Source: Planctomycetota bacterium (GTDB taxonomy: Bacteria > Planctomycetota > UBA8108 > UBA1146 > JAKEFC01). From it: a stretch of 16,935 bases of DNA. Made by a program: the position numbers and the translations under genes. Where the stretch lies: positions 1 to 16,935 of the forward strand of contig JAKEFC010000025.1 in assembly GCA_022616235.1 (NCBI GenBank), read 5' to 3'. The first letter of the stretch is position 1; each line of letters begins with the position of its first letter. The notes beneath the pieces are model-generated. The model made no database searches. It had not been told where the DNA came from and was given only the letters and a program-made list of their open reading frames with translations. Shown here one piece after another: positions 1,385 to 16,447 of this stretch.

Positions 1385-3118
1385 ATGGAAGCTGTCGGTT
1401 TTTTCCTGGCCCAAATGAACTCACAGGCGCTTGGCGCCATGGTCATCGCGCTCGTTCTTTTTGGCGCCTTGTTCCTGTTCTTCCTCGCGAAACGCTACAA
1501 GCGCTGCCCGCCGAACCGCGTGCTCGTGATCTACGGCAAGGTCCGCGCCGGCACCTCGGCGCGCTGTCTCCACGGCGGCGGCGCGTTCGTCTGGCCGCTG
1601 ATCCAGAACTATTCCTATCTCAGCCTCGACCCCCTGCAGATCGAGATCCCGCTGAGCGGCGCGCTCTCCGCCGAGAACATCCGCATCAACGTACCGAGCG
1701 TCTTCACCGTGGCGGTCGGCACGACGGATGAACTGATGCAGAGCGCCGCGCAGCGCTTGCAGGGGCTCTCCCCCACGGAGATTTCCCAGCAGGGCCGCGA
1801 CATCATCTTCGGGCAGCTCCGGCAAGTGATCGCGTCGATGGGGATCGAGGACATCAACCGCGACCGCGACAAATTCCTGAGCAAGGTCCAATCGTCGCTC
1901 GAGCCGGAGCTGAACAAGATCGGTCTCGTGCTCATCAACGTGAACATCACGGACATCACGGATGAGTCGGGATACATCGAGGCGATCGGGCGCAAGGCTG
2001 CGTCCGAGGCGGTGCAATCCGCCGCGATCGACGTCGCGCTGCAAGAGAAGCGCGGCGCGATCGGCGTCGCCGCCGCGAAGCGCGACCAGGACATCAGCGT
2101 CGCGCAGGCCGAGCGTGACCTGCAAGTCGGGACGACGACCGCGCAGCGCGAGCAGGCGGTCGAGGTCGCCCGCCTCGCGAAAGAGCGCGCGGTCGGCGAG
2201 CAGCAGGCCGCCTTCGAGCGCGATTCGCAGATCAAGGTGGCGGAGCGGGAGATGAGGGTCGCGGTCGCGAACGCGAATGCCTCGGCCGTCTCCGGCGAGA
2301 ACGAAGCGAAGGCCGTCATCGCGAACGCGAACGCGCAGCTCCGCATCAAGGAAGCGGAAGCGTACCAGGTCTCCGAGGTGCGGAAGCGCGAAGCCGAGGC
2401 CGCGGTCCTCGAAGCGCAGTACAAGGCGCAGGCGCGCCAGGCGCTCGCCGAGTCCACGAAGATCGAGGCGGAGCAGCGGGCGCAGCTCGAGGCCGCCGCG
2501 CGCGCGATCAAAGCGAAGATCACCGTCGACGCCGAGGCGGAGGCGGATGCGCGCCGCATCCACGCGCAAGGGCAGGCGGACGCGCGGCGCATCGAGGCGG
2601 AAGCGCAAGCGCAGGCGACCTTCGTCAATCTCGAGGCTCAGGCGCGCGGCCAGTTCGAAATCCTGCGCCGGAAGGCGGAGGGCCTGCGCGAGCTGGTGGC
2701 GAGCTGCGGCGGCGCGCAGAACGCCTTTCAGTTGATGATGCTCGAGCACCTCGACCACCTCGCGGAAACCGCCGCCTCCGCGATCTCGAACGTCAAGTTC
2801 GACAAGATCGTCGTGTGGGACGGCGGCGCGGAGAACGGCGGCGCCGCTGGATTCGTGAAGCGCATGGGCTCCATGCTGCCGCCCATGATGAATCTCATGA
2901 AGGACATAGGCGGCGTGCAGATGCCGGAATTCCTCGGGAAGATGGTGGAAGGAGAGGGCGCGGGCCCGGGCGCCGGGCCGAGCGCCGGCGCCGGCGCCGG
3001 CACGGGCGCCGCACCGCCGCATGCGGGACCGCCGCCGGCCGCGCCGCCGCCGCAAGCGCCGCCTGCATCCACGGGCACGGCCCCTGGCGGCGCGAAGCCC
3101 GGCGGCAAGGGGCACTAG
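1385..3118 (+). CDS. flotillin-like SPFH/band-7 protein (YqiK/FloT family) with an Ala/Gly/Pro-rich C-terminal tail
   Basis: GAAGGAG RBS 6 nt before ATG 1385. N-terminal TM anchor, then an SPFH core (RVLVIYGKVRAG...FVWPLIQNYSYLSLDPLQIEIPL...), then a long EA-rich coiled-coil with flotillin-type repeats (ADARRIHAQGQADARRIEAEAQAQA). The tail GAGPGAGPSAGAGAGTGAAPPHAGPPPAAPPPQAPP is low-complexity. Confidence 0.85.
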   Translation: MEAVGFFLAQMNSQALGAMVIALVLFGALFLFFLAKRYKRCPPNRVLVIYGKVRAGTSARCLHGGGAFVWPLIQNYSYLSLDPLQIEIPLSGALSAENIRINVPSVFTVAVGTTDELMQSAAQRLQGLSPTEISQQGRDIIFGQLRQVIASMGIEDINRDRDKFLSKVQSSLEPELNKIGLVLINVNITDITDESGYIEAIGRKAASEAVQSAAIDVALQEKRGAIGVAAAKRDQDISVAQAERDLQVGTTTAQREQAVEVARLAKERAVGEQQAAFERDSQIKVAEREMRVAVANANASAVSGENEAKAVIANANAQLRIKEAEAYQVSEVRKREAEAAVLEAQYKAQARQALAESTKIEAEQRAQLEAAARAIKAKITVDAEAEADARRIHAQGQADARRIEAEAQAQATFVNLEAQARGQFEILRRKAEGLRELVASCGGAQNAFQLMMLEHLDHLAETAASAISNVKFDKIVVWDGGAENGGAAGFVKRMGSMLPPMMNLMKDIGGVQMPEFLGKMVEGEGAGPGAGPSAGAGAGTGAAPPHAGPPPAAPPPQAPPASTGTAPGGAKPGGKGH

Positions 3119-3161: not shown

Positions 3162-4163
3162 ATGAAGATGCATGACGATGGAGGAATCGCCACGCCGAAC
3201 AACGAAGGGCACCGCTCCAACGGCGGGGCAACGCACTATCGCGCCTACGGCATCACGATCGCTTCCGAGATCGATCTGCCGGAGTTGCCGCGCGCCCCCG
3301 CCGGCGCCGGGAGCGTCGCGGATCTCACGATCCGCCTCGGCACCGTCGATGCGAGCGACGCGGCGCCGGCCGCGGCGGGGAGCCGCTTCTGGATCCGCGG
3401 CGGCGATGCGTGCCACGCTTACAAGGGCGCCGGAGCATTCCTCGCCCGCGCAGGCGCGGAGATCATCGTGGATCCGCTCCCCGGCGTCGCCGCGGAGGTC
3501 ATCCGCCTCTCGCTCCTCGGCCCCGTGCTCGCGCTCGCGCTCCATCAGCGCGGCCTTTTCCTCCTCCACGCGAGCGCCGTCGCGGCTCCGCGCGGAACCG
3601 GCGCGATCGTCCTCGCGGGAGCGTCGGGGGCAGGCAAGTCGACCGCCGCGGCGCTCCTCTGCCGGAACGGCTACGCGCTCGTGGCGGACGATGTGACGGC
3701 GCTCGCTCCGAGCCCCGCGGGCGTGCAGGTCCTGCCGGGCTATCCGCAGTGCAAGCTCTGGCGCGATGCCTACGAGGCGCTCGGCTATGCGGAGGAGGAA
3801 CTCGCGCCGATGAATCCGGCGTACGACAAGCGCGCGCTCCGCACCGCGAGTCACTTCTGCGCGCAACCGCTCCCGCTCGGCGGGATCTGCATCCTCGACG
3901 TCGGGGAGCAGCTCGCGTACGAAGCGGTGCCGCCGCAACAGGGTTTCGCCGAGGTCATGCGCAACTGGTACGGCGCCCGCTTCGGAAGCGGTCTCTTCCA
4001 GGCGCTCGATCGCGAGCTGCACCTCCGCCACGCCGCCGCGGTCGCCGCGAGCGCGCCGATCGTCCGCCTCACGCGCCCGCGCCTCGGCCTCGCCGACCCC
4101 GCCTTCGGCGGCCGCTTCGCCGCCGCCATCGCGCGCGCCTTCGCCGCTGGGCGTCCCGCCTGA
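3162..4163 (+). CDS. HPr kinase/phosphorylase C-terminal-domain-like kinase; predicted lasso peptide C-terminal Ser kinase
   Basis: P-loop GASGAGKSTAAALLCRNGYALVADDV matches the HprK C-domain (GxSGxGKS...lvaDD). The N-terminal ...YRAYGITIASEIDLPELP resembles lasso-associated HprK homologues. Both downstream precursors end in Ser. Start ATG 3162 (or 3168); the upstream in-frame ORF extension is Arg-rich junk. Confidence 0.8.
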   Translation: MKMHDDGGIATPNNEGHRSNGGATHYRAYGITIASEIDLPELPRAPAGAGSVADLTIRLGTVDASDAAPAAAGSRFWIRGGDACHAYKGAGAFLARAGAEIIVDPLPGVAAEVIRLSLLGPVLALALHQRGLFLLHASAVAAPRGTGAIVLAGASGAGKSTAAALLCRNGYALVADDVTALAPSPAGVQVLPGYPQCKLWRDAYEALGYAEEELAPMNPAYDKRALRTASHFCAQPLPLGGICILDVGEQLAYEAVPPQQGFAEVMRNWYGARFGSGLFQALDRELHLRHAAAVAASAPIVRLTRPRLGLADPAFGGRFAAAIARAFAAGRPA

Positions 4164-4253: not shown

Positions 4254-4547
4254 ATGAGTGAAAGCCTTTCGCGAAACAGCGTCGTGACGAAGCTGCGCGA
4301 GCAGATCGCCGCGAGTCTCGGCGCCGAGGCCGTGATCCTGCACCTCGAGAGCGGGATCTACTACGGGCTCAACGAAGTCGGCGCGCGCATCTGGAGCCTC
4401 GTGGAGGAGCCGCGCACGGTGCAGGCGCTCATCGATGCCATCGTGGCAGAGTACGACGTGGAGCCCGAGCAATGCGCGCGCGACGTGGAGACGCTGCTCG
4501 GCCGCCTCGTAGAGAAGCGGCTCATCTCGATCTCGCCCCCCAAGTGA
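4254..4547 (+). CDS. PqqD-family RiPP recognition element (lasso B1 protein)
   Basis: 97 aa with the PqqD-like signature (AVILHLESGIYYGLNEVGARIWSLVEEPRTVQALIDAIVAEYDV). The size is typical of B1/RRE proteins. The GTG 4179 extension would only add an Arg-rich N-terminus. Confidence 0.8.
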   Translation: MSESLSRNSVVTKLREQIAASLGAEAVILHLESGIYYGLNEVGARIWSLVEEPRTVQALIDAIVAEYDVEPEQCARDVETLLGRLVEKRLISISPPK

Positions 4548-4631
4548 TCCTAGAGCCCATTTCAAAACCTGGCCGTGGGCCAGAGGTCGAGCGAGAGGCG
4601 CGCGCGCAAGGAGAGCCGAAGAGTCGTATTA

Positions 4632-6605
4632 ATGGAGAAATACGGCGATGAGGTTCGACGCAGCGCGCGTGCCTCGCAGCCGACCGAAGCCAGGCCAGGT
4701 ATTGAAATTGGCTCGCAGAAATCGCTCCGAAAGTCGGCGCCCTTGATCGGGATCGCAGGCATCGTCCGCCGCGGCGGCCCCCCACTCGATCCCGCGGATG
4801 AAGAGCGCCTGCTCGCGGCGATCGCGCGCGGCGCGCGGCGCGAAGCGCCGGCGTTTCGCGGCACCGATGCGTTCCTGTGCGGCGGGGAGCGCGCCCCCGA
4901 GCCCGGCGTCATCTTCTTCTCCGGCCGCCTCGACGATCTCGCGGGTTTGCAGAGGAGTCTCGGTGAGGGCGCGCCGCCGGTCGCCGGCCCGGCGAATGAC
5001 GCGGCGTTCGCGGGCGCCGCGTTCGCAAAGTGGGGGGAACGGACCCCGGAATTCCTCCTCGGCGACTTCGCGCTCGCCGCGTTCGATGCGAGCGAGCGGC
5101 GCCTCTTTCTCGCGCGCGATGCGATCGGCGTCATCCCCGTGTACTACCATCTCACGCCGGCGCGCTTCGCGTTCGCGACGGAGTTGGGAGCGCTCCTCGC
5201 GCTTCCTTGGATCCCGCGCGAGCCCGACGAGCTTCGCATCGCGGACTACGTCGCCGTCTACTTCGACGACCGAGAAGCGACCTTCTATCGCGCGATCCGC
5301 CGCCTGCCGCCCGCGCACGCGCTCGCCGTCCAGCCGGCGGCCGCCCGCACGCGCCGCTACTGGGCGCTGGATCCCGCGCGCGAGATCGTGCCCGCCTCCG
5401 ACGAAGAAGCCGCCGAGCGCTTTCGCGCGCTCTTCTGCGACGCGGTGGGGGCGCGCTTGCGGCGGGCGGCGCACCCCGCGCTGCTCTTGAGCGGCGGGCT
5501 CGATTCCGCATCGATACTCTGCGCGGCCCAGGGGTTCTCTCCGAGCGCGGCGCCGCTCGCGACCTTCAGCGCCGTGTTTCCATCGCAATCGCGCGCCGAC
5601 GAGACGCGCGACCTCGATCTTCTGCTCGCCGAAGTGCGCGCGGCGCCCACGATCGTGCGCGCCGATCTGCTGAGTCCGCTCGGCGCTTCCCGCGAGATGC
5701 TCCGCCACCTGCGCCAGCCGTATCACGCGCCGAATCTCTTCGTGTATTGGAGCCTCGCGCGCGCGGCGCACGAGGCGGGAGTGACGGCGCTCCTCGACGG
5801 CGTGGACGGCGACACGACCGTGAGCCACGGATTCGAGTACCTGGCGGAATTGTTCCGCGGCGCGCGCTGGCTCGCGTGGCTTCGCGAGACGCGAAGCCTC
5901 GCAAGGCGGCTCGGCACCGCGACGCTCCCTTTCCTCTGGCGCTTCGGCGTGCTGCCCTCCCTGACGCGCTTCGCCGGCGAGCGCTATGGCGCTTTCGGCG
6001 CGGGCGCGCCGGGGACGCCGCCTCCGCTCCTCGACCGCGACTGCGCGGAGCGCGTGGAGTGGCGCGCGAAGCGCGAGGATGCGATCGCCGCGCTCGGCGC
6101 CGCGCCGCCGACCTTGCGCGCCGCTCATCATCGCCAGCTCGCGAGCGGCCTCATCCCGTTCTACCTCGAAGTGAATCACCTGCTCTCGGCGCCGCTCGGG
6201 ATCGAGGCGCGGCATCCGTATTACGACCGGCGCTTGATCGAATACTGCCTCGCGCTACCGCCCGCGCTCCGCCTCCAGGATGGATGGGACCGGCGCGTGC
6301 AGCGGCTCGCCATGGCGGGCATGGTGCCAGAACGGGTCCGCTTGCGCTTGCGCAAGGCGCACTGGGGAAGGAACTTCGAAGAGAGCTTTCTGGTTCGCGA
6401 CCGCGGCCTGATCGAGGAGACCCTCGAGGTTTCGGCGCCGAGGCTCCGCCAATTCCTCGATTTGGGGCGGCTCCAAGCGGCGATGCACCGAACCGCAGCA
6501 GGGGGGCGCCGCGCGGACGACGTCATGGACCTCTGGGTTGCGACGACGCTGGGCCTCTGGCTCGTGTCCGAAGAGCGTGCGAGCGCTTCCACTGCCGTCG
6601 GGTAG
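4632..6605 (+). CDS. asparagine synthetase-like lasso peptide cyclase (C protein)
   Basis: N-terminal LIGIAGIV resembles the AsnB MCGIAGI motif but carries Leu in place of the nucleophilic Cys. An SGGLDS PP-loop ATP-pyrophosphatase motif is present (ALLLSGGLDSASILCAAQ). Length ~620-657 aa. Start is uncertain: ATG 4632 or TTG 4743. Confidence 0.85.
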   Translation: MEKYGDEVRRSARASQPTEARPGIEIGSQKSLRKSAPLIGIAGIVRRGGPPLDPADEERLLAAIARGARREAPAFRGTDAFLCGGERAPEPGVIFFSGRLDDLAGLQRSLGEGAPPVAGPANDAAFAGAAFAKWGERTPEFLLGDFALAAFDASERRLFLARDAIGVIPVYYHLTPARFAFATELGALLALPWIPREPDELRIADYVAVYFDDREATFYRAIRRLPPAHALAVQPAAARTRRYWALDPAREIVPASDEEAAERFRALFCDAVGARLRRAAHPALLLSGGLDSASILCAAQGFSPSAAPLATFSAVFPSQSRADETRDLDLLLAEVRAAPTIVRADLLSPLGASREMLRHLRQPYHAPNLFVYWSLARAAHEAGVTALLDGVDGDTTVSHGFEYLAELFRGARWLAWLRETRSLARRLGTATLPFLWRFGVLPSLTRFAGERYGAFGAGAPGTPPPLLDRDCAERVEWRAKREDAIAALGAAPPTLRAAHHRQLASGLIPFYLEVNHLLSAPLGIEARHPYYDRRLIEYCLALPPALRLQDGWDRRVQRLAMAGMVPERVRLRLRKAHWGRNFEESFLVRDRGLIEETLEVSAPRLRQFLDLGRLQAAMHRTAAGGRRADDVMDLWVATTLGLWLVSEERASASTAVG

Positions 6606-6737
6606 TCACCGCGCCGCCAAGCCCGGCTCCGGCAACCGAGATTCCGGCGCGCAAGTTGGGCGAGCCCTTTGCTAGGTTCCGCGCAGACGCATGGCGCCGC
6701 CACTACGCCGCGAACGACACCGAAGGGAGCCTGCCTC

Positions 6738-6929
6738 ATGACCTCCGACTTCACGAACCTACCGGCCTCCCAGAACAAGCGCCGCCCTTACCGCACTCCG
6801 GAGTTGGTCGTCCACGGGAGCATGGAAAAACTCACCGGTTGGATCGGCGGCACTTGGGGCGAATTCTTCGGCGGCACGAACGGCCTCGACCCGTTGGGAG
6901 ATGACCCCTTGGGCGGCACGGGGAGCTGA
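6738..6929 (+). CDS. lasso peptide precursor A1 (63 aa): MTSDFTNLPASQNKRRPYRTPELVVHGSMEKLT-GWIGGTWGEFFGGTNGLDPLGDDPLGGTGS
   Basis: AAGGGAG RBS 8 nt upstream. The leader carries the RRE-binding motif YxxPxLx3G (YRTPELVVHG). The core has Glu at position 9 (8 if the core starts at Trp) for isopeptide ring closure, is Gly-rich, and ends in Ser (the kinase target). It is a paralogue of the next ORF and sits right after the cyclase gene. Confidence 0.75.
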   Translation: MTSDFTNLPASQNKRRPYRTPELVVHGSMEKLTGWIGGTWGEFFGGTNGLDPLGDDPLGGTGS

Positions 6930-7183
6930 CTCTACCGTTCGACGCACCACCCTCGCGCCGAGTCGAAGTCGCGGACTTCCGCGTCGCGACAACTCCCGTG
7001 CTGCGGCTCATTTCCGAGGATCTACCTCAGCAGTTCCACAGCCGGCGGGTAGCCAGAGAGCCACCCGGCCGGTATCCTTCTTCGACCCGGACGCCCGGAG
7101 TGCGTGCGCGGCTTCGCAAACGGCCGTGCGCACCCCACTCGGCGCAATCACTACGCCGCAAACGACGAGGAATCGACTCCATC

Positions 7184-7381
7184 ATGACCACCGCCTTCAC
7201 GAGCCGTGCGAATTCCCAATGCCCGCGCCGCCCCTACCTTGCTCCGGAGCTGATCGTCCACGGGAGCATAGAGAAGCTCACCGGTTGGGTCGGTGGCCCT
7301 TGGGGCGAATTCCTCGGCGGCACGAACACCGGCTACAATCCTTGGGACGGCGATGGGCCCTGGGCCGTCACGGGCAGCTAG
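7184..7381 (+). CDS. lasso peptide precursor A2 (65 aa): MTTAFTSRANSQCPRRPYLAPELIVHGSIEKLT-GWVGGPWGEFLGGTNTGYNPWDGDGPWAVTGS
   Basis: Same leader architecture (RRPY..PEL[VI]VHGS[MI]EKLT) and same ring region (GW[IV]GG[TP]WGEF) as A1. The tail differs and is rich in bulky Tyr/Trp. It also ends in Ser. The conserved upstream element CACTACGCCGC[AG]AACGAC is shared with A1. Confidence 0.75.
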   Translation: MTTAFTSRANSQCPRRPYLAPELIVHGSIEKLTGWVGGPWGEFLGGTNTGYNPWDGDGPWAVTGS

Positions 7382-7475
7382 CAACTTCTTTCCGCGCTCG
7401 TTCCCAATCTAAGTGCAAAGACTCGACACTCCCATCGACGAGAGTCGAAACACAGCGCCAGAATCGTTGCAACCG

Positions 7476-8714
7476 ATGAATTTCGCCGCGCCGGGACTTC
7501 GCGCGGATGCGAAGTGGCTATTGGCAATCGTTTCCGTTGGGTCGGCCGCCGGCCGCATCGAGCGCTTGCGCGCGCTCGACGTGCGCGCGCTCGACGCGAC
7601 TCGCCTGCACGCGCTCGCCATGCGCCACCGCGTCGAGTCGCAGGTCGCGCGCGCGCTGGAATCTCTCCCCTGCGACCCTTCCGAAATCGCTCCCGCGGGG
7701 CTCTTGCCGGCGATTCGCGCCGCGGCGCGCGCCGAGTGCATCCACTCTTTGCGATTGACGCGCGAGCTGCTCGAGGTCGTCGCCCTCCTCGAGCAGAACT
7801 CGATCCCCGTGCTCGCTTACAAGGGGCCCGTCCTCGCCGCCGCGCTCTATGGCGCCGCCGCCGCGCGCCACTCGTGGGACCTCGACGTCCTCGTGCGGCG
7901 CGCGGACCTCGAGCGCGCGCGCGGCCTACTCCACGAGCGCGGCTACGTGCCGGAGCCGCAGCCGCCATCGCAAGCGGAGCGGGACCTGCTCGCGCTGGAT
8001 TGCGAGTGCAACCTCGACCACCCGCGCCTCGGGGTCCACCTCGAATTGCACTGGGACCTCTTCGATGAAGAGAACCGCCGCGGCCTCGATGCGGAATTCT
8101 TGTGGAAGAATGCGACGCGCGTCGAGTTTGCCGGCAGCACGGTCCTCGCGCCTTCGCCCGCGGCGATGTTCATCGTCGCTTGCGCCCACGGCGGCGAGAA
8201 GCATCGCTGGGGGCGCCTGAAATGGGTGCTGGACATCGCGCGCTTTCCCGCGGCGTATCCCGCGCTCGATTGGCCCGCGGCGCTCGCGCTCGCGGAGAGC
8301 GTGGGGCGGCGCCAAGCCGTGCTCGAAGGCATCTATCTCGCCACGCACTTGCTCGGCGCCGAATTTCCTCCCGCGCTCGCGGCAGCCGCGGAGCGGGACG
8401 AGTGGGTGGCGGCGAACGCGGCGCACACGCGCGGGCGCCTCTTCCGGGATGACGCCGACTTTCCCGGCTTCGGCGAGTGGCGCGCCTACCTGCACGCCGC
8501 GCGCGCGGAAGCGGAAGCTGATGCAGGCAAGAACGCCGGGCTCCGCGAGAAGCTTCGCACGCTCGCGCTCTATCTGCGCACGGTGTTCACGCCCGATTGG
8601 GCGGACCGCCGCCGCCATCGCGTGCCGCGGCGCCTCGGTTTCCTGCGCTACTTGCTCCGCGCGAGAGAACTCGCGCACACCTACCGCGCGGACCTCACCG
8701 CGCGCCTCAAGTAG
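7476..8714 (+). CDS. nucleotidyltransferase-family protein (Pol-beta superfamily; lasso-cluster-associated 'N' protein)
   Basis: Pol-beta NTase signature G-x(n)-DhD is present (YKGPVLAAALYGAAAARHSWDLDVLV), followed by a helical C-terminal region. Proteins of this kind co-occur with HprK-like kinases in phosphorylated-lasso clusters. Start is ATG 7476 or GTG 7413. Confidence 0.7.
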   Translation: MNFAAPGLRADAKWLLAIVSVGSAAGRIERLRALDVRALDATRLHALAMRHRVESQVARALESLPCDPSEIAPAGLLPAIRAAARAECIHSLRLTRELLEVVALLEQNSIPVLAYKGPVLAAALYGAAAARHSWDLDVLVRRADLERARGLLHERGYVPEPQPPSQAERDLLALDCECNLDHPRLGVHLELHWDLFDEENRRGLDAEFLWKNATRVEFAGSTVLAPSPAAMFIVACAHGGEKHRWGRLKWVLDIARFPAAYPALDWPAALALAESVGRRQAVLEGIYLATHLLGAEFPPALAAAAERDEWVAANAAHTRGRLFRDDADFPGFGEWRAYLHAARAEAEADAGKNAGLREKLRTLALYLRTVFTPDWADRRRHRVPRRLGFLRYLLRARELAHTYRADLTARLK

Positions 8715-12936: not shown

Positions 12937-13524
12937 ATGCGCTATCCGGCGGAGCACAAAGATCGCATGCGCAAGAAGATCGTTCGCGCGGCAGCGCGCC
13001 GCTTTCGCGGCGCGGGCAGCGAGGGCGTTCCGATCGCGGATCTCATGCGGGATCTCGACCTCACCCACGGCGGCTTCTATCGCCACTTCCAAGGAAAGGA
13101 AGAGCTGTTCGACGAAGCGCTCGCCGAGAGCATGGCACAGGTCGAAGCGCTGATGACGGCGACGGCGAATGCCGCACCGCGCGGCAAGGAGCTGGAAGCG
13201 ATCATCGACTTGTACTTGAGCCCGGCGCACTGCGCGAACGTTGCGGAAGGGTGCCCGCTCGCGGCGCTAGTGACGGAGGTGGCGCGCCATCCGAAGAGCA
13301 CCCGCGTTACGTTGAGCAATGCCGTCAAGCGCCATGCCGCCGCGGTGGCGCGGTTCATGCCGGGAGAGACGGAAGCCGAGCGCCAGGGCACGGCGATGGT
13401 GCTCTTCTCCGGCATGGCGGGGGCGCTGAACCTCGCGCGCGCGGTGTCGGATGATGCGCTTCGAAGGAAGATCCTCGCGCGCGCGCGCGACTTTTACGCC
13501 GGCGCGGTTCGCGGGAAGCCATGA
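12937..13524 (+). CDS. TetR/AcrR-family transcriptional regulator
   Basis: N-terminal HTH (RKKIVRAAARRFRGAGSEGVPIADLMRDLDLTHGGFYRHFQGKEELF) is the TetR signature. ~195 aa. Sits upstream of an efflux operon. Confidence 0.85.
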   Translation: MRYPAEHKDRMRKKIVRAAARRFRGAGSEGVPIADLMRDLDLTHGGFYRHFQGKEELFDEALAESMAQVEALMTATANAAPRGKELEAIIDLYLSPAHCANVAEGCPLAALVTEVARHPKSTRVTLSNAVKRHAAAVARFMPGETEAERQGTAMVLFSGMAGALNLARAVSDDALRRKILARARDFYAGAVRGKP

Positions 13525-13602
13525 GGCGTTTTTTTTGGCGCAGATGGGATTTCGATCATCATCTCATCGGGAGCGCCGGCGCCGCCGAGAGGACGCGGAC
13601 CG

Positions 13603-14739
13603 ATGAACTTCGTCGCCCTGCGAATGCTCACGGGCGATCGCGCCAAGTACTTCGGCCTGGTGTTCGCGATCGCGTTCTGCACGTTCCTGCTCGAGAACCA
13701 GACCACGATCTTCGCGAGCATCCTGAAGCGTACCGCCAGCCAGATCCTCGATGTCACGGACGCCGAGGTCTGGGTCATGGATCAGAAGACCGAATACTGG
13801 GAGCAGACGAAGGCCCTGAAGGACACCGACCTCACCCGCGTCCGCGGAGTGCCGGGGGTGCTCTGGGCCGTGCGGCTCTTCAAGGGCAACCCCGTCGCGC
13901 GCACGCGCTCCGGCAAGTTCGCGGTGTCGTTCCTGATCGGCCTCGACGACGCCACGCTCGCCGGCGCGCCCCGGAAAATGCTGCTCGGGTCGTGGGAGCG
14001 CCTGCGCGAACCCGACTCGGTGATCATCGACGAGGCGGGCTACGTCCTCCTCTATCCCGGCGAGCCGCTCGAGCTGGGGCGTACCCTGGAGATGAACGAC
14101 CACCTGGTCACCATCGTCGGGATCTCCGATGCCTCTGCGCCTTTCGTGAGCCTGCCCGTGATGCACGCGCGCTACAGCAAGGCGATCGACTTTCTCGGCC
14201 GCGAGCGCACGCAGCTTTCCTTCGTCATCGCGCGCCCGGAGCCGGGGGTGACACCCGCGGCGCTCACCGAGCGGATCCAAGCGACGACTGGACTAAAAGC
14301 GCGCACGACCGGCGAGTTCATGTGGGACTGCGTGCGCTACTACCTCCGCAACACCGGCATTCCCGTGAATTTCGGGATCACGATCGCCGTGGCCCTGATC
14401 GTCGGCGCCGTCGTCGGCGGGCAGACCTTCTATCTCTTCACGATCGAGAACCTGAAGCAATTCGGAGCGCTGAAGGCGATCGGCGTCACGAATCCCCGCC
14501 TCATCGGCATGATCCTCTTGCAGGCGTTCAGCGCGGGGATCCTGGGCTTCGCGCTCGGAACCGGGATGGCGGCGACCTTCTTCGAGATCACGAGTCACAT
14601 GCTCGCCACGCGTGGCATCGCGCTCCTCTGGCAGTGCGTCGCGTTGACCGGCGCGGCGATCCTCGGCGTCGTGATCGTCGCCAGCATCCTCAGCATCCGG
14701 CGCGTCCTCGTGCTCGAGCCGGCGGCGGTGTTCCGATGA
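13603..14739 (+). CDS. ABC transporter permease, FtsX/MacB/DevC family
   Basis: N-terminal TM helix, a large periplasmic domain, then three C-terminal TM helices with the FtsX-like pattern (GALKAIGVTNPRLIGMILLQAF...). Its stop overlaps the ATPase start (ATGA). Confidence 0.85.
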   Translation: MNFVALRMLTGDRAKYFGLVFAIAFCTFLLENQTTIFASILKRTASQILDVTDAEVWVMDQKTEYWEQTKALKDTDLTRVRGVPGVLWAVRLFKGNPVARTRSGKFAVSFLIGLDDATLAGAPRKMLLGSWERLREPDSVIIDEAGYVLLYPGEPLELGRTLEMNDHLVTIVGISDASAPFVSLPVMHARYSKAIDFLGRERTQLSFVIARPEPGVTPAALTERIQATTGLKARTTGEFMWDCVRYYLRNTGIPVNFGITIAVALIVGAVVGGQTFYLFTIENLKQFGALKAIGVTNPRLIGMILLQAFSAGILGFALGTGMAATFFEITSHMLATRGIALLWQCVALTGAAILGVVIVASILSIRRVLVLEPAAVFR

Positions 14740-15500
14740 TCGGCGCGGCGAACGGCCACGATTTCGCGGTGTCGTGCGCGGGCGTCCGGAAGTCCTTCGG
14801 CGCGGGGGAGACCAAGACCGAGGCGCTCCGCGGCGTCGACTTCGACGCCCGCTTCGGCCAGCTCACGTTCCTCGTCGGGCCGAGCGGCTGCGGCAAGACG
14901 ACCCTCATCTCGATCATCGCGGGGCTCCTCGATCGCTCGAGCGGGGAATTGGCTGTGCTCGGCCTACGCCCCGACGAGTTGTCGGGCGGGGAGCGCGTGC
15001 GGTTTCGGCGCCGGAATCTGGGATTCATCTTCCAGCAGTACAACCTGCTGCCGTCGCTCACGGCGGCCGAGAACGTCGCCGTGCCGCTCCTCGCCGCCGG
15101 CGTGCCGCGCAGGCAGGCGGTGCGGCGCGCGACGGACCTGTTGGCGCGGCTCGGGCTCGAGAATCGCGCCGCGGCGCGTCCCGCCACGCTCTCCGGCGGC
15201 CAACAGCAGCGGGTCGCGATCGCGCGCGCCCTCGTCCACGAGCCGCGCCTCATCGTGTGCGACGAGCCCACCGCCGCGCTCGATCACGAGAATGGAGAGG
15301 CGGTGCTCCAGTTGCTCGCCTCGACCGCGGTGAATCCGGATCGCGCGGTGATCGTGGTCACGCACGATTCCCGCGTATTCCACCACGCGCACCGAATCGC
15401 GCGCATGGACGACGGACGGATCGTCGATGTCGCGAAGCAGGCGCGCGCCTCGCTGTCGCCTGCGGCAAACGGCGCCGAGACCCACGAGGAGGACCGATGA
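14736..15500 (+). CDS. ABC transporter ATP-binding protein (MacB/LolD/DevA-like)
   Basis: Walker A GPSGCGKTT, Q-loop, ABC signature LSGGQQQRVAIARAL, Walker B LIVCDEPT, H-loop VTHD. Confidence 0.9.
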   Translation: MIGAANGHDFAVSCAGVRKSFGAGETKTEALRGVDFDARFGQLTFLVGPSGCGKTTLISIIAGLLDRSSGELAVLGLRPDELSGGERVRFRRRNLGFIFQQYNLLPSLTAAENVAVPLLAAGVPRRQAVRRATDLLARLGLENRAAARPATLSGGQQQRVAIARALVHEPRLIVCDEPTAALDHENGEAVLQLLASTAVNPDRAVIVVTHDSRVFHHAHRIARMDDGRIVDVAKQARASLSPAANGAETHEEDR

Positions 15501-16447
15501 TGAAGCGTAGCGTGTTGCCGTTCCTTGGAATACTCGCCGCCGCTTGGGCGACCTTCGCGATCATCCGGTCGAAGCCGGCGCGCGTCGAAACCGACCCTCC
15601 GAGCCCGCCGCCGGTCTCGGAGTACGGCCATACCGTCGCGGCGGTCGGCCTGATCGAAGCGAACACCGAGAACATCTCCATCGGAACGCCGCTCGGCGGA
15701 GTCGTGGCGCGCGTCTACGTAACGGCGGGGCGCACGGTGAACGAAAACGAGCCGCTCTTCGAACTCGATACGCGGCATCTCCGCGCGGAGCTGGCGGTGC
15801 GCGAGGATGCGTGTGCCGTCGCACGCGCGCGCGTGGCGGTCGCGGCGGCGCAGCTCGCGGACCTCGAGCGGCAGCTCGAGTTCTTCGAGCAGATCAGCGA
15901 CAAGCGCGCGGTGTCCGTCGAGGAGCTGACGCGCCGTCGCTCCGCGGTCGAGACGGCCGCGGCGTCGCTCGAGCAGGCGCGCGCGGAGGCCCTGGCGGCG
16001 AATTCCTCGCGCGACGCCGTGGGCGTCGAAATAGAACGCAGCACGGTGCGCGCGCCGATGGACGCGGAGGTGCTCCAGGTGAAGGTGCGCCCCGGCGAGT
16101 ACGCCCCAGCGGCCGCGATGCCGGCTCCGCTCCTCCTGCTCGGCCGCGCGAAGCCGCTCCATGTCCGCGTCGACGTGGACGAGCACGAAGGGTGGCGCGT
16201 GCGCGCCGGCGCCGCCGCCACCGGGCACGTGCGCGGCAACGCGGATCTAAAGACGTCGCTCCGCTTCGTGCGCATGGAGCCGTTCGTCGTGCCCAAGCGT
16301 TCGCTCACGGGCGACAGCACGGAACGCGTCGACACGCGCGTCCTCCAGATCATCTACCTCATCGAGCGCGACGACCTCCCGCTCTTCGTCGGCCAGCAGA
16401 TGGACGTCTTCATCGACGGCGCCCCCCCCAACGGCCGCGCACATTGA
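15497..16447 (+). CDS. HlyD-family periplasmic adaptor / membrane-fusion protein (DevB/MacA-like)
   Basis: N-terminal TM anchor (VLPFLGILAAAWATFAII), a coiled-coil hairpin (ELAVREDACAVARARVAVAAAQLADLERQLEFFEQ...), and C-terminal beta domains. GAGGAGGA RBS. Start overlaps the ATPase stop. Confidence 0.8.
   Translation: MMKRSVLPFLGILAAAWATFAIIRSKPARVETDPPSPPPVSEYGHTVAAVGLIEANTENISIGTPLGGVVARVYVTAGRTVNENEPLFELDTRHLRAELAVREDACAVARARVAVAAAQLADLERQLEFFEQISDKRAVSVEELTRRRSAVETAAASLEQARAEALAANSSRDAVGVEIERSTVRAPMDAEVLQVKVRPGEYAPAAAMPAPLLLLGRAKPLHVRVDVDEHEGWRVRAGAAATGHVRGNADLKTSLRFVRMEPFVVPKRSLTGDSTERVDTRVLQIIYLIERDDLPLFVGQQMDVFIDGAPPNGRAH

Follow-up and report, generated by a model that had tools for sequence, protein, structure and literature searches.

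A tandem pair of putative lasso peptide precursor genes beside kinase-like and nucleotidyltransferase genes on a planctomycetal contig

The nearest precedents for the gene cluster considered here are lasso peptides that are phosphorylated or phosphoglycosylated at a C-terminal serine (paeninodin and pseudomycoidin), together with lasso clusters that carry several precursor genes (the caulosegnins). HPr-kinase homologues from lasso clusters add phosphate to the C-terminal Ser while the precursor is still linear, in some cases more than once (PMC8498205; PMC6993621), and B1 proteins can speed up this phosphorylation (PMC10368454). Further, PsmN, described as an "uncharacterised NTP transferase", is needed to add one or two hexoses to pseudomycoidin phosphate (PMC6993621). 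Pseudomycoidin itself, which is poor in plug residues, was reportedly not threaded when made without the tailoring enzymes, and its authors suggested that the phospho-hexose might act as the lock (PMC6993621). Here, we analyze contig JAKEFC010000025.1 of a Planctomycetota bacterium (assembly GCA_022616235.1), whose whole 16,935-nucleotide stretch, about 16.9 kb, we call the window. In it, two tandem open reading frames (ORFs), A1 and A2, lie between genes for a lasso cyclase (C) and a nucleotidyltransferase (N), downstream of genes for a candidate kinase (K) and a leader-binding chaperone (B1). We consider it likely that A1 and A2 are both functional, tandem-duplicated precursor genes for class II-type lasso peptides, and that they belong to one co-directional set, K-B1-C-A1-A2-N.

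The A1 gene (6738-6929, + strand) encodes 63 amino acids (MTSDFTNLPASQNKRRPYRTPELVVHGSMEKLTGWIGGTWGEFFGGTNGLDPLGDDPLGGTGS) and the A2 gene (7184-7381, + strand) encodes 65 (MTTAFTSRANSQCPRRPYLAPELIVHGSIEKLTGWVGGPWGEFLGGTNTGYNPWDGDGPWAVTGS), both as intact ORFs separated by 254 nt. A sequence-only reading of this DNA had described them as tandem paralogous precursors, and that description holds. Specifically, the translations are exact, the two proteins are 65% identical (reciprocal tblastn E ~1e-21), and the DNA is 81% identical over 151 nt ungapped at a spacing of 446 nt, which constitutes the largest direct repeat of the window, with two copies. Each was called as a gene, independently, in two public assemblies of the same organism, and the public annotation of both is "hypothetical protein" only (L0Z55_01215 and L0Z55_01220; Planctomycetes bacterium metagenome-assembled genome, MAG). 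The duplicated unit measures ~240 bp and comprises the gene plus a short 5' untranslated region (UTR), with similarity extending from ~45 nt before the ATG to the stop codon; alignment of the genes with their upstream sequence therefore bears out the earlier claim that the 5' UTR was duplicated along with the gene. The A1 5' UTR (6693-6737, + strand) contains a conserved block at 6701-6718 and a Shine-Dalgarno-like AAGGGAG at 6723-6729, and the A2 5' UTR (7141-7183, + strand) contains the block at 7149-7166 and GAGGAA at 7167-7172. What the two regions share is GGCGC plus an 18-nt stretch, CACTACGCCGC[G/A]AACGAC, identical at 17/18 positions and located at about -37..-20 from the A1 ATG and -35..-18 from the A2 ATG. 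The last ~20 nt before each ATG are little conserved, such that the ~40 nt of upstream conservation originally claimed is real for the block and overstated for the segment next to the start codon. A regulatory role for the block was considered and rejected, as no such block precedes the precursors of six related loci, which indicates that it is simply part of the duplicated unit.

The separation of the two copies is, on the substitution counts, not recent. Synonymous divergence (dS) between A1 and A2 is ~0.38, and both indels are 3 nt long. In the leader segment expected to bind the RRE domain, the ratio of non-synonymous to synonymous divergence (dN/dS) is 0.22, with 5 synonymous changes against 4 non-synonymous ones that are conservative or fall at x positions of the motif (Fisher p 0.036); the rings differ by three conservative changes, and the tails show a dN/dS of ~0.5, all of these ratios being based on small substitution counts. 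Taken as sequence evidence, the data favor the retention of both copies as coding genes, which is unproven for A1.

Lasso leaders in general carry Y(-17), P(-14), L(-12) and T(-2) (PMC10368454; PMC12070363). In both A1 and A2, the leader contains Y18, P21, L23, G27 and T33 with the spacing YxxPxLx3Gx5Tx exact, confirming the YxxPxLx3G motif recognized previously, and because this register matches the general one, Gly34 falls at -1, the core begins at Trp35 (Trp1), and Glu42 becomes Glu8. The A1 leader would thus span 6738-6839 and the A1 core (WIGGTWGEFFGGTNGLDPLGDDPLGGTGS) 6840-6926, with the Glu8 codon at 6861-6863 and the C-terminal Ser codon at 6924-6926, and the A2 leader would span 7184-7285 and the A2 core (WVGGPWGEFLGGTNTGYNPWDGDGPWAVTGS) 7286-7378, with the Glu8 codon at 7307-7309. 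A relative in the locus that we label L018 carries Arg at -1 (VVTR/WIGGPWGEF, the slash marking the predicted cut) with T(-2) and W1 as in the others, which supports a cut after Gly34. A Trp1-Glu8 ring, rather than Gly1-Glu9, is most likely from this register. Hence, of the two ring sizes that the sequence-only reading had left open, the larger is disfavored, while its acidic ring residue stands: Glu at core position 8 from Trp1 (9 if Gly34 is in the core) is invariant in 12/12 members of the precursor family described below. Leader and ring of A1 give sub-threshold matches to NF033528 lasso_cyano (E 4e-4) and NF033534 rhodolasso (E 2e-3), and A2 matches NF033528 at E 8e-4. As predicted lasso peptides, the two products would have computed monoisotopic masses of 2861.293 (A1) and 3218.416 (A2), rising to 2941.260 and 3298.382 with one phosphate and to 3103.312 and 3460.435 with a phosphate and a hexose. 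Trp as the N-terminal ring-forming residue has precedent in fusilassin/fuscanodin, which has a Trp1-Glu9 ring; unlike A1 and A2, that peptide is actinobacterial, has a 9-residue ring and an unrelated sequence, and is not known to undergo tailoring.

When 5.8 billion proteins were searched with a profile of A1 and A2, only seven further ones matched. Genome and metagenome scans added three more members with a Trp-first core (in L012, L017 and L018) and three relatives with a similar leader and another core (in L014, L015 and L016). The 12 Trp-first members, i.e., A1, A2 and ten from other loci, share a common pattern, EK[LI]T-G/R before the predicted cut and W[VI]GG[PT]WGEF[FL]GG..G[WY]NP[WYT]...S after it. 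The C-terminal Ser that had been pointed out in A1 and A2 proved to be a property of the whole family, being present in 12/12 members and also in the L014, L015 and L016 relatives. The family is small and mostly planctomycetal, with Planctomycetota and Phycisphaerales as its named sources. At least 10 independent loci, drawn from different samples and phyla, have a homologous peptide beside a lasso cyclase, and wherever enough sequence is available, the precursor comes directly after the cyclase, with K and/or N after it in turn. The recurrence of this arrangement in independent samples is the best evidence that the family peptides are cyclase substrates. Our literature searches found no paper containing the core motif GGPWGEF and no characterized lasso peptide from Planctomycetota. 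With this locus, a small and so far unannotated family of putative lasso precursors can be defined, whose core is unusually conserved, Gly/Trp-rich and Trp-first.

Within this family, two precursor copies occur only in the window, with one each found in the other loci by tblastn and a six-frame motif scan. The duplication is thus lineage-specific, and the comparison with homologous clusters that the sequence-only reading had put forward as a check went against its conservation. A 53-aa minus-strand gene in L004 and L005 was considered as a second precursor there and rejected as an unrelated small hydrophobic protein. The N-terminal leader segment MT..FT...SQ..RRPY is present in A1 and A2 and in no other member, which makes the two copies mutual closest relatives. 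They part company in the tail. A2 keeps the family consensus G[WY]NPW (as GYNPW), and its tail aromatics are Tyr17, Trp20 and Trp26. A1 departs from the family at Pro5 (to Thr), [WY]17 (to Leu, where A2 has Tyr17), Asn18 (to Asp) and Trp20 (to Leu), and has Leu24 where A2 has Trp26; its tail is acidic, all three tail aromatics have become Leu, and both Trp/Leu differences are single TGG/TTG changes. By this comparison, the A2 tail is the ancestral one and the A1 tail is derived. A relative-rate test with the three closest outgroups counted 7 A1-unique against 3 A2-unique changes (p 0.34). The earlier expectation of two products with different threaded tails is therefore upheld for the divergence of the tails, while threading is itself a prediction, and a weaker one for A1, which lacks aromatic plugs.

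Some relatives show peculiarities of their own. The tails of the L009 (10001-10189) and L012 (7971-8213) precursors contain 7-10 consecutive Gly before a terminal LGS (...KQPGGGGGGGGGGLGS), so that an exceptionally long, flexible linker precedes the putative phosphorylation site. In L014 (7905-8138) and L016 (7983-8147), from Anaerolineae / Caldilineaceae MAGs, a homologous leader (WNTPHLIVHGSVEKITG) precedes another core (GCNKMYGSADGFTFMGDSIVCASGS) with two Cys, in which the first acidic residue by the -17/-2 register is Asp10, beyond the known ring sizes of 7-9; either the cut site is shifted (Cys1-Asp9) or the ring is unusually large. L015 (7189-8141; Planctomycetota MAG STL-PLA48) looks degenerate or rearranged, with partial matches only to B1 and B2 and no cyclase found there; its precursor-like ORF (...EKITGFIDRTKRGIGGAGQPSFQYS) lacks Asp or Glu at core positions 7-9, keeps the C-terminal Ser, and is followed by K.

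The genes around A1 and A2 agree with the lasso-precursor interpretation first given: the cyclase and the PqqD/RRE chaperone are directly upstream, and the candidate tailoring genes K and N are alongside, all on the + strand in the order K, B1, C, A1, A2, N (K coordinates were taken from public gene calls with an offset of +3010, and domains were assigned by Pfam/NCBIfam profile searches). The chaperone B1 (4254-4547), a PqqD-family RRE protein that would bind the leader, matches PF05402 at 83.6 bits (cut-off 23.4) and NF033536 lasso_PqqD_Bac at 76.2 bits (E 2e-21), just below its cut-off of 80. The cyclase C (4632-6605), an Asn-synthetase homologue predicted to form the isopeptide bond, is full length, with an N-terminal GATase-like domain (GATase_7) and Asn_synthase; it matches NF033535 lass_lactam_cya at E 1.2e-132 and 443.7 bits, below the curated cut-off of 525, and scores above the cut-offs for PF00733 (128.6 bits) and PF13537. 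The candidate C-terminal-Ser kinase K (3162-4163) is an HPr-kinase-like P-loop protein recognized from sub-threshold profile matches and a motif alignment, specifically PF07475 Hpr_kinase_C at E 7.7e-5 and 22.7 bits (cut-off 33.3) and TIGR04352 HprK_rel_A at E 1e-7 and 31.2 bits (cut-off 200). It aligns with HPrK/P 1ko7 (E 0.3) over Walker A and the double-Asp motif VADD (GASGAGKSTAAALLCRNGYALVADD), the latter being the counterpart of D158/D159, the metal site that was mutated in PsmK (PMC6993621). It is also 37% identical (E 3e-44) to the kinase beside the L007 precursor, and its orthologues of L003 and L007 do match PF07475. Finally, N (7476-8714), an NTP_transf_5 "uncharacterised nucleotidyltransferase" and a candidate enzyme for glycosylating phospho-Ser, matches PF14907 at 177.6 bits (cut-off 31.2), with a D-L-D (DxD) motif inside the matched domain. 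An N orthologue comes after either the precursor or the kinase in L003, L007, L009, L012 and L013, and no relatives of N were found in the PDB. The presence of K upstream and N downstream accords with a C-terminal Ser that is invariant. Loci differ in where they carry the kinase gene: it stands before B1 in the window, lies 5.4 kb upstream past unrelated genes in L003 (1407-2351), directly follows the precursor in all B2-containing loci (e.g., L007, 10233-11132), and was not found within the L009 and L012 loci examined.

We propose that these genes act together as follows. First, B1 would bind the Y(-17)xxP(-14)xL(-12) leader common to A1 and A2. Second, K would phosphorylate the side chain of the invariant C-terminal Ser while the precursor is still linear. 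Third, the leader would be cut off after Thr(-2)-Gly(-1), a step that, in the absence of a leader peptidase (B2) gene in cis, is assigned to a B2 encoded elsewhere or to a host protease. C would then join the Trp1 amine to the Glu8 side chain, closing an 8-residue macrolactam around the tail, and N, by analogy with the hexoses of pseudomycoidin, would decorate the phospho-Ser. In this way, a single enzyme set would yield two products that have a ring in common and diverge in the tail.

Several observations weigh against this interpretation. Open frames are cheap in DNA of 69% GC, such that ORF intactness alone carries little weight, and the cyclase, B1 and K all score below NCBIfam curated cut-offs, as does the Pfam match of K relative to its gathering score. 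The site specificity of such kinases is not universal, as BsfK phosphorylates Ser3 and not the C-terminus (PMC10368454). No ORF for a Transglut_core3 B2 (PF13471) was found anywhere in the 16.9-kb contig in six frames, by tblastn and a B2 hidden Markov model (HMM). Last, the four positions at which A1 departs from the family vary little or not at all among the other eleven members, and no aromatic follows Phe10 in A1, which may be unable to keep a threaded fold or may be in decay.

The missing peptidase is the basis of the most probable of the alternatives, in which maturation is genuinely independent of B2 and a non-dedicated protease removes the leader, leaving B1 the sole task of presenting the precursor to K and C, in a non-canonical lasso system. 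B2 is also lacking in L003 and L009 (tblastn and the B2 HMM, any frame) and in L012; the HMM was built from two sequences and recovers the B2 proteins of L004 and L007 at E 1e-87 to 1e-90. In these four loci, B1 is followed by C with a gap of 0 to ~130 nt (B1-C spans of 4254-6605 in the window, 7774-9921 in L003, 7673-9894 in L009 and 5516-7901 in L012), leaving no room for B2, and no B2-like ORF occurs in the 12-20 kb available. Six sister loci (L004, L007, L013, L014, L016 and L017) have the order B1-B2-C-A-K. In a neighbor-joining tree, the cyclases of the four B2-less loci form one clade (200/200 bootstraps), and those of L003, L009 and L012 are only ~44% identical to the window cyclase; together, monophyly and this depth indicate a single old loss or relocation of B2 and a layout that has long been stable. 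It also speaks for independence that pseudomycoidin was made without B1 and B2 in both E. coli and B. subtilis (PMC6993621), and that accelerating phosphorylation would give B1 a second role (PMC10368454). However, Thr(-2), the classical recognition residue of the peptidase, is kept without exception throughout the B2-less clade, as would suit a B2 that acts in trans; MAG contigs are fragments, so B2 may sit elsewhere in the genome; and K occupies variable positions or lies outside the locus in this clade, so genes of these clusters do scatter. A B2 profile search of a protein database (E<=1e-15) returned none from this MAG (L0Z55 tag) among the best 120 of 1815 matches. On balance, we regard B2-independent maturation as unlikely, while granting it more credence than the other alternatives, and retain a pathway in which B2 or a host protease acts from outside the cluster.

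A second alternative is that only A2 works, with A1 a redundant duplicate that is drifting toward loss and is either unprocessed or yields an unthreaded, branched-cyclic by-product. That A1 alone departs from the family at the four core positions given above, that it has the larger share of unique changes, and that no other locus has a second copy, so that two copies are not required, all point this way, as does the reported unthreaded state of pseudomycoidin, which likewise lacks bulky tail residues, when made without its tailoring enzymes (PMC6993621). Nevertheless, A1 keeps all of the leader recognition residues, Trp1, Glu8, the C-terminal Ser, the Shine-Dalgarno-like site and its frame in spite of a dS of ~0.38, the 7:3 asymmetry is not significant, and the replacement of all three tail aromatics by Leu, two of them through an identical TGG->TTG substitution, suggests direction more than chance. 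We therefore think a nonfunctional A1 rather improbable, a little more so than B2 independence, and continue to treat both copies as probable working precursor genes. By analogy with pseudomycoidin, A1 may be either a case of the phospho-hexose lock or a drifting copy. The remaining alternative, that the repeat is non-coding, i.e., either a regulatory or RNA element that was duplicated or two ORFs that arose by chance in GC-rich DNA where spurious frames are plentiful (86 ORFs of at least 80 aa in the window), is effectively refuted by the comparative data and hardly credible, given the conservation of the protein sequence, with synonymous substitutions falling within invariant motifs, the recurrence of homologous peptides beside cyclases, an Rfam search of 6400-7700 that returned nothing at E<=1, and an A1-A2 spacer that, as a whole, folds no better than shuffled sequences (z -1.4).

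Beyond the proposed pathway, there is a bolder scenario, which combines the two peculiarities of the locus and which we hold to be doubtful. In it, the planctomycetal clade of the window, L003, L009 and L012 would be permanently without B2, keeping leader, Thr(-2) and B1 for the sake of the kinase and the cyclase, and the plug-less A1 product would be locked by a phospho-glycosyl group installed at its C-terminal Ser by K and N. The authors of the triculamin study found no non-canonical clusters with other cores (PMC12070363), and a truly B2-independent clade would thus be new. If the scenario were true, the clade would join triculamin as another kind of non-canonical lasso pathway, and A1 would test the "third locking strategy" proposed for pseudomycoidin. 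Genome-mining tools that demand a B2 gene would miss the clade.

As for the regulation of the pair, a GC-rich hairpin lies between A1 and A2 (7041-7073, + strand; -20.6 kcal/mol, z -2.5, with 0/200 shuffles as stable) and is followed by UAUCCUUCUUC. Its U tract is weak, and it was not called in the consensus terminator scan, whose one terminator-like site is on the wrong strand and at chance level; a promoter consensus scan found no promoter-like site. The hairpin may be a transcriptional attenuator that sets the A1:A2 ratio.

The flanks of the cluster are apparently unrelated to it, with a flotillin upstream and RsmD plus two unknown proteins downstream on the opposite strand. In the flotillin-like gene (1385-3118), a 12-nt periodic GC-rich repeat at 2956-3011 encodes a Gly/Ala/Pro-rich, low-complexity C-terminus and is probably unrelated to the cluster. 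Some 4 kb downstream, past the minus-strand genes, is a region (12937-16447) with a TetR regulator, a MacB-type permease (FtsX/MacB_PCD), an ABC ATPase region and an HlyD-family adaptor; in the relatives, a pair of ABC2-type transporter genes adjoins the cluster in place of this distant set.

The A1/A2 pair amounts to a natural experiment, in which a common leader and ring are joined to tails with and without aromatic plugs, both ending in Ser, and it makes testable the idea that a C-terminal phospho-glycosyl group acts as a steric lock. These observations do not overturn the current understanding; rather, they extend what is known of multi-precursor clusters and of Ser-phosphorylated lasso peptides. 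We see the locus as modestly unusual, in that it combines a highly conserved planctomycetal core family whose ring is predicted to begin at Trp1, a plug-less derived paralogue, and a clade-wide absence of B2 at the locus.

Among the described systems, one close to the locus is the paeninodin / ThcoA / SyanA type of C-terminally (poly)phosphorylated lasso peptides (Zhu et al. 2016; reviewed in PMC8498205 and PMC9266682), with which, as the reviews portray that type, it shares a candidate HPr-kinase homologue, a Ser-ended precursor, a split B1 (PqqD) and an Asn-synthetase-type cyclase. In the paeninodin type, the kinase acts on the linear precursor, whereas for the window locus phosphorylation is a prediction from the genes. 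The core described here has no sequence similarity to that type, the host belongs to Planctomycetota and not to Bacillota or Pseudomonadota, and the predicted ring is Trp1-Glu8 and not Ala1/Gly1-Asp. Further, the window contig has two precursors and lacks both B2 and an adjacent ABC2-type exporter. Another is pseudomycoidin (psm, Bacillus pseudomycoides; PMC6993621), whose cluster combines a kinase K and an "uncharacterised nucleotidyltransferase" N with a Ser-ended precursor, for which the window has candidate counterparts (PsmN being likened to the window N by description only). The pseudomycoidin tail has few bulky residues, as in A1, and the peptide can be produced without a leader peptidase; however, the psm cluster encodes B1 and B2, which were dispensable in the tested hosts, and has a single precursor with an unrelated core (PMC6993621).

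The triculamin biosynthetic gene cluster is likewise a lasso cluster without a leader peptidase gene, yet it has no B1, a follower instead of a leader, and an N-terminally truncated cyclase, where the window has a leader, a B1 and a full-length cyclase (PMC12070363). Finally, the clusters for caulosegnins I-III (Hegemann et al. 2013, via PMC9266682) resemble the window in that tandem paralogous precursors with conserved leaders and divergent cores are served by one enzyme set. As far as that summary goes, such clusters are proteobacterial, of the ABCD layout with a fused B and no kinase or N tailoring, and their paralogues differ over the whole core, whereas in A1 and A2 the ring is near-identical and only the tail differs.

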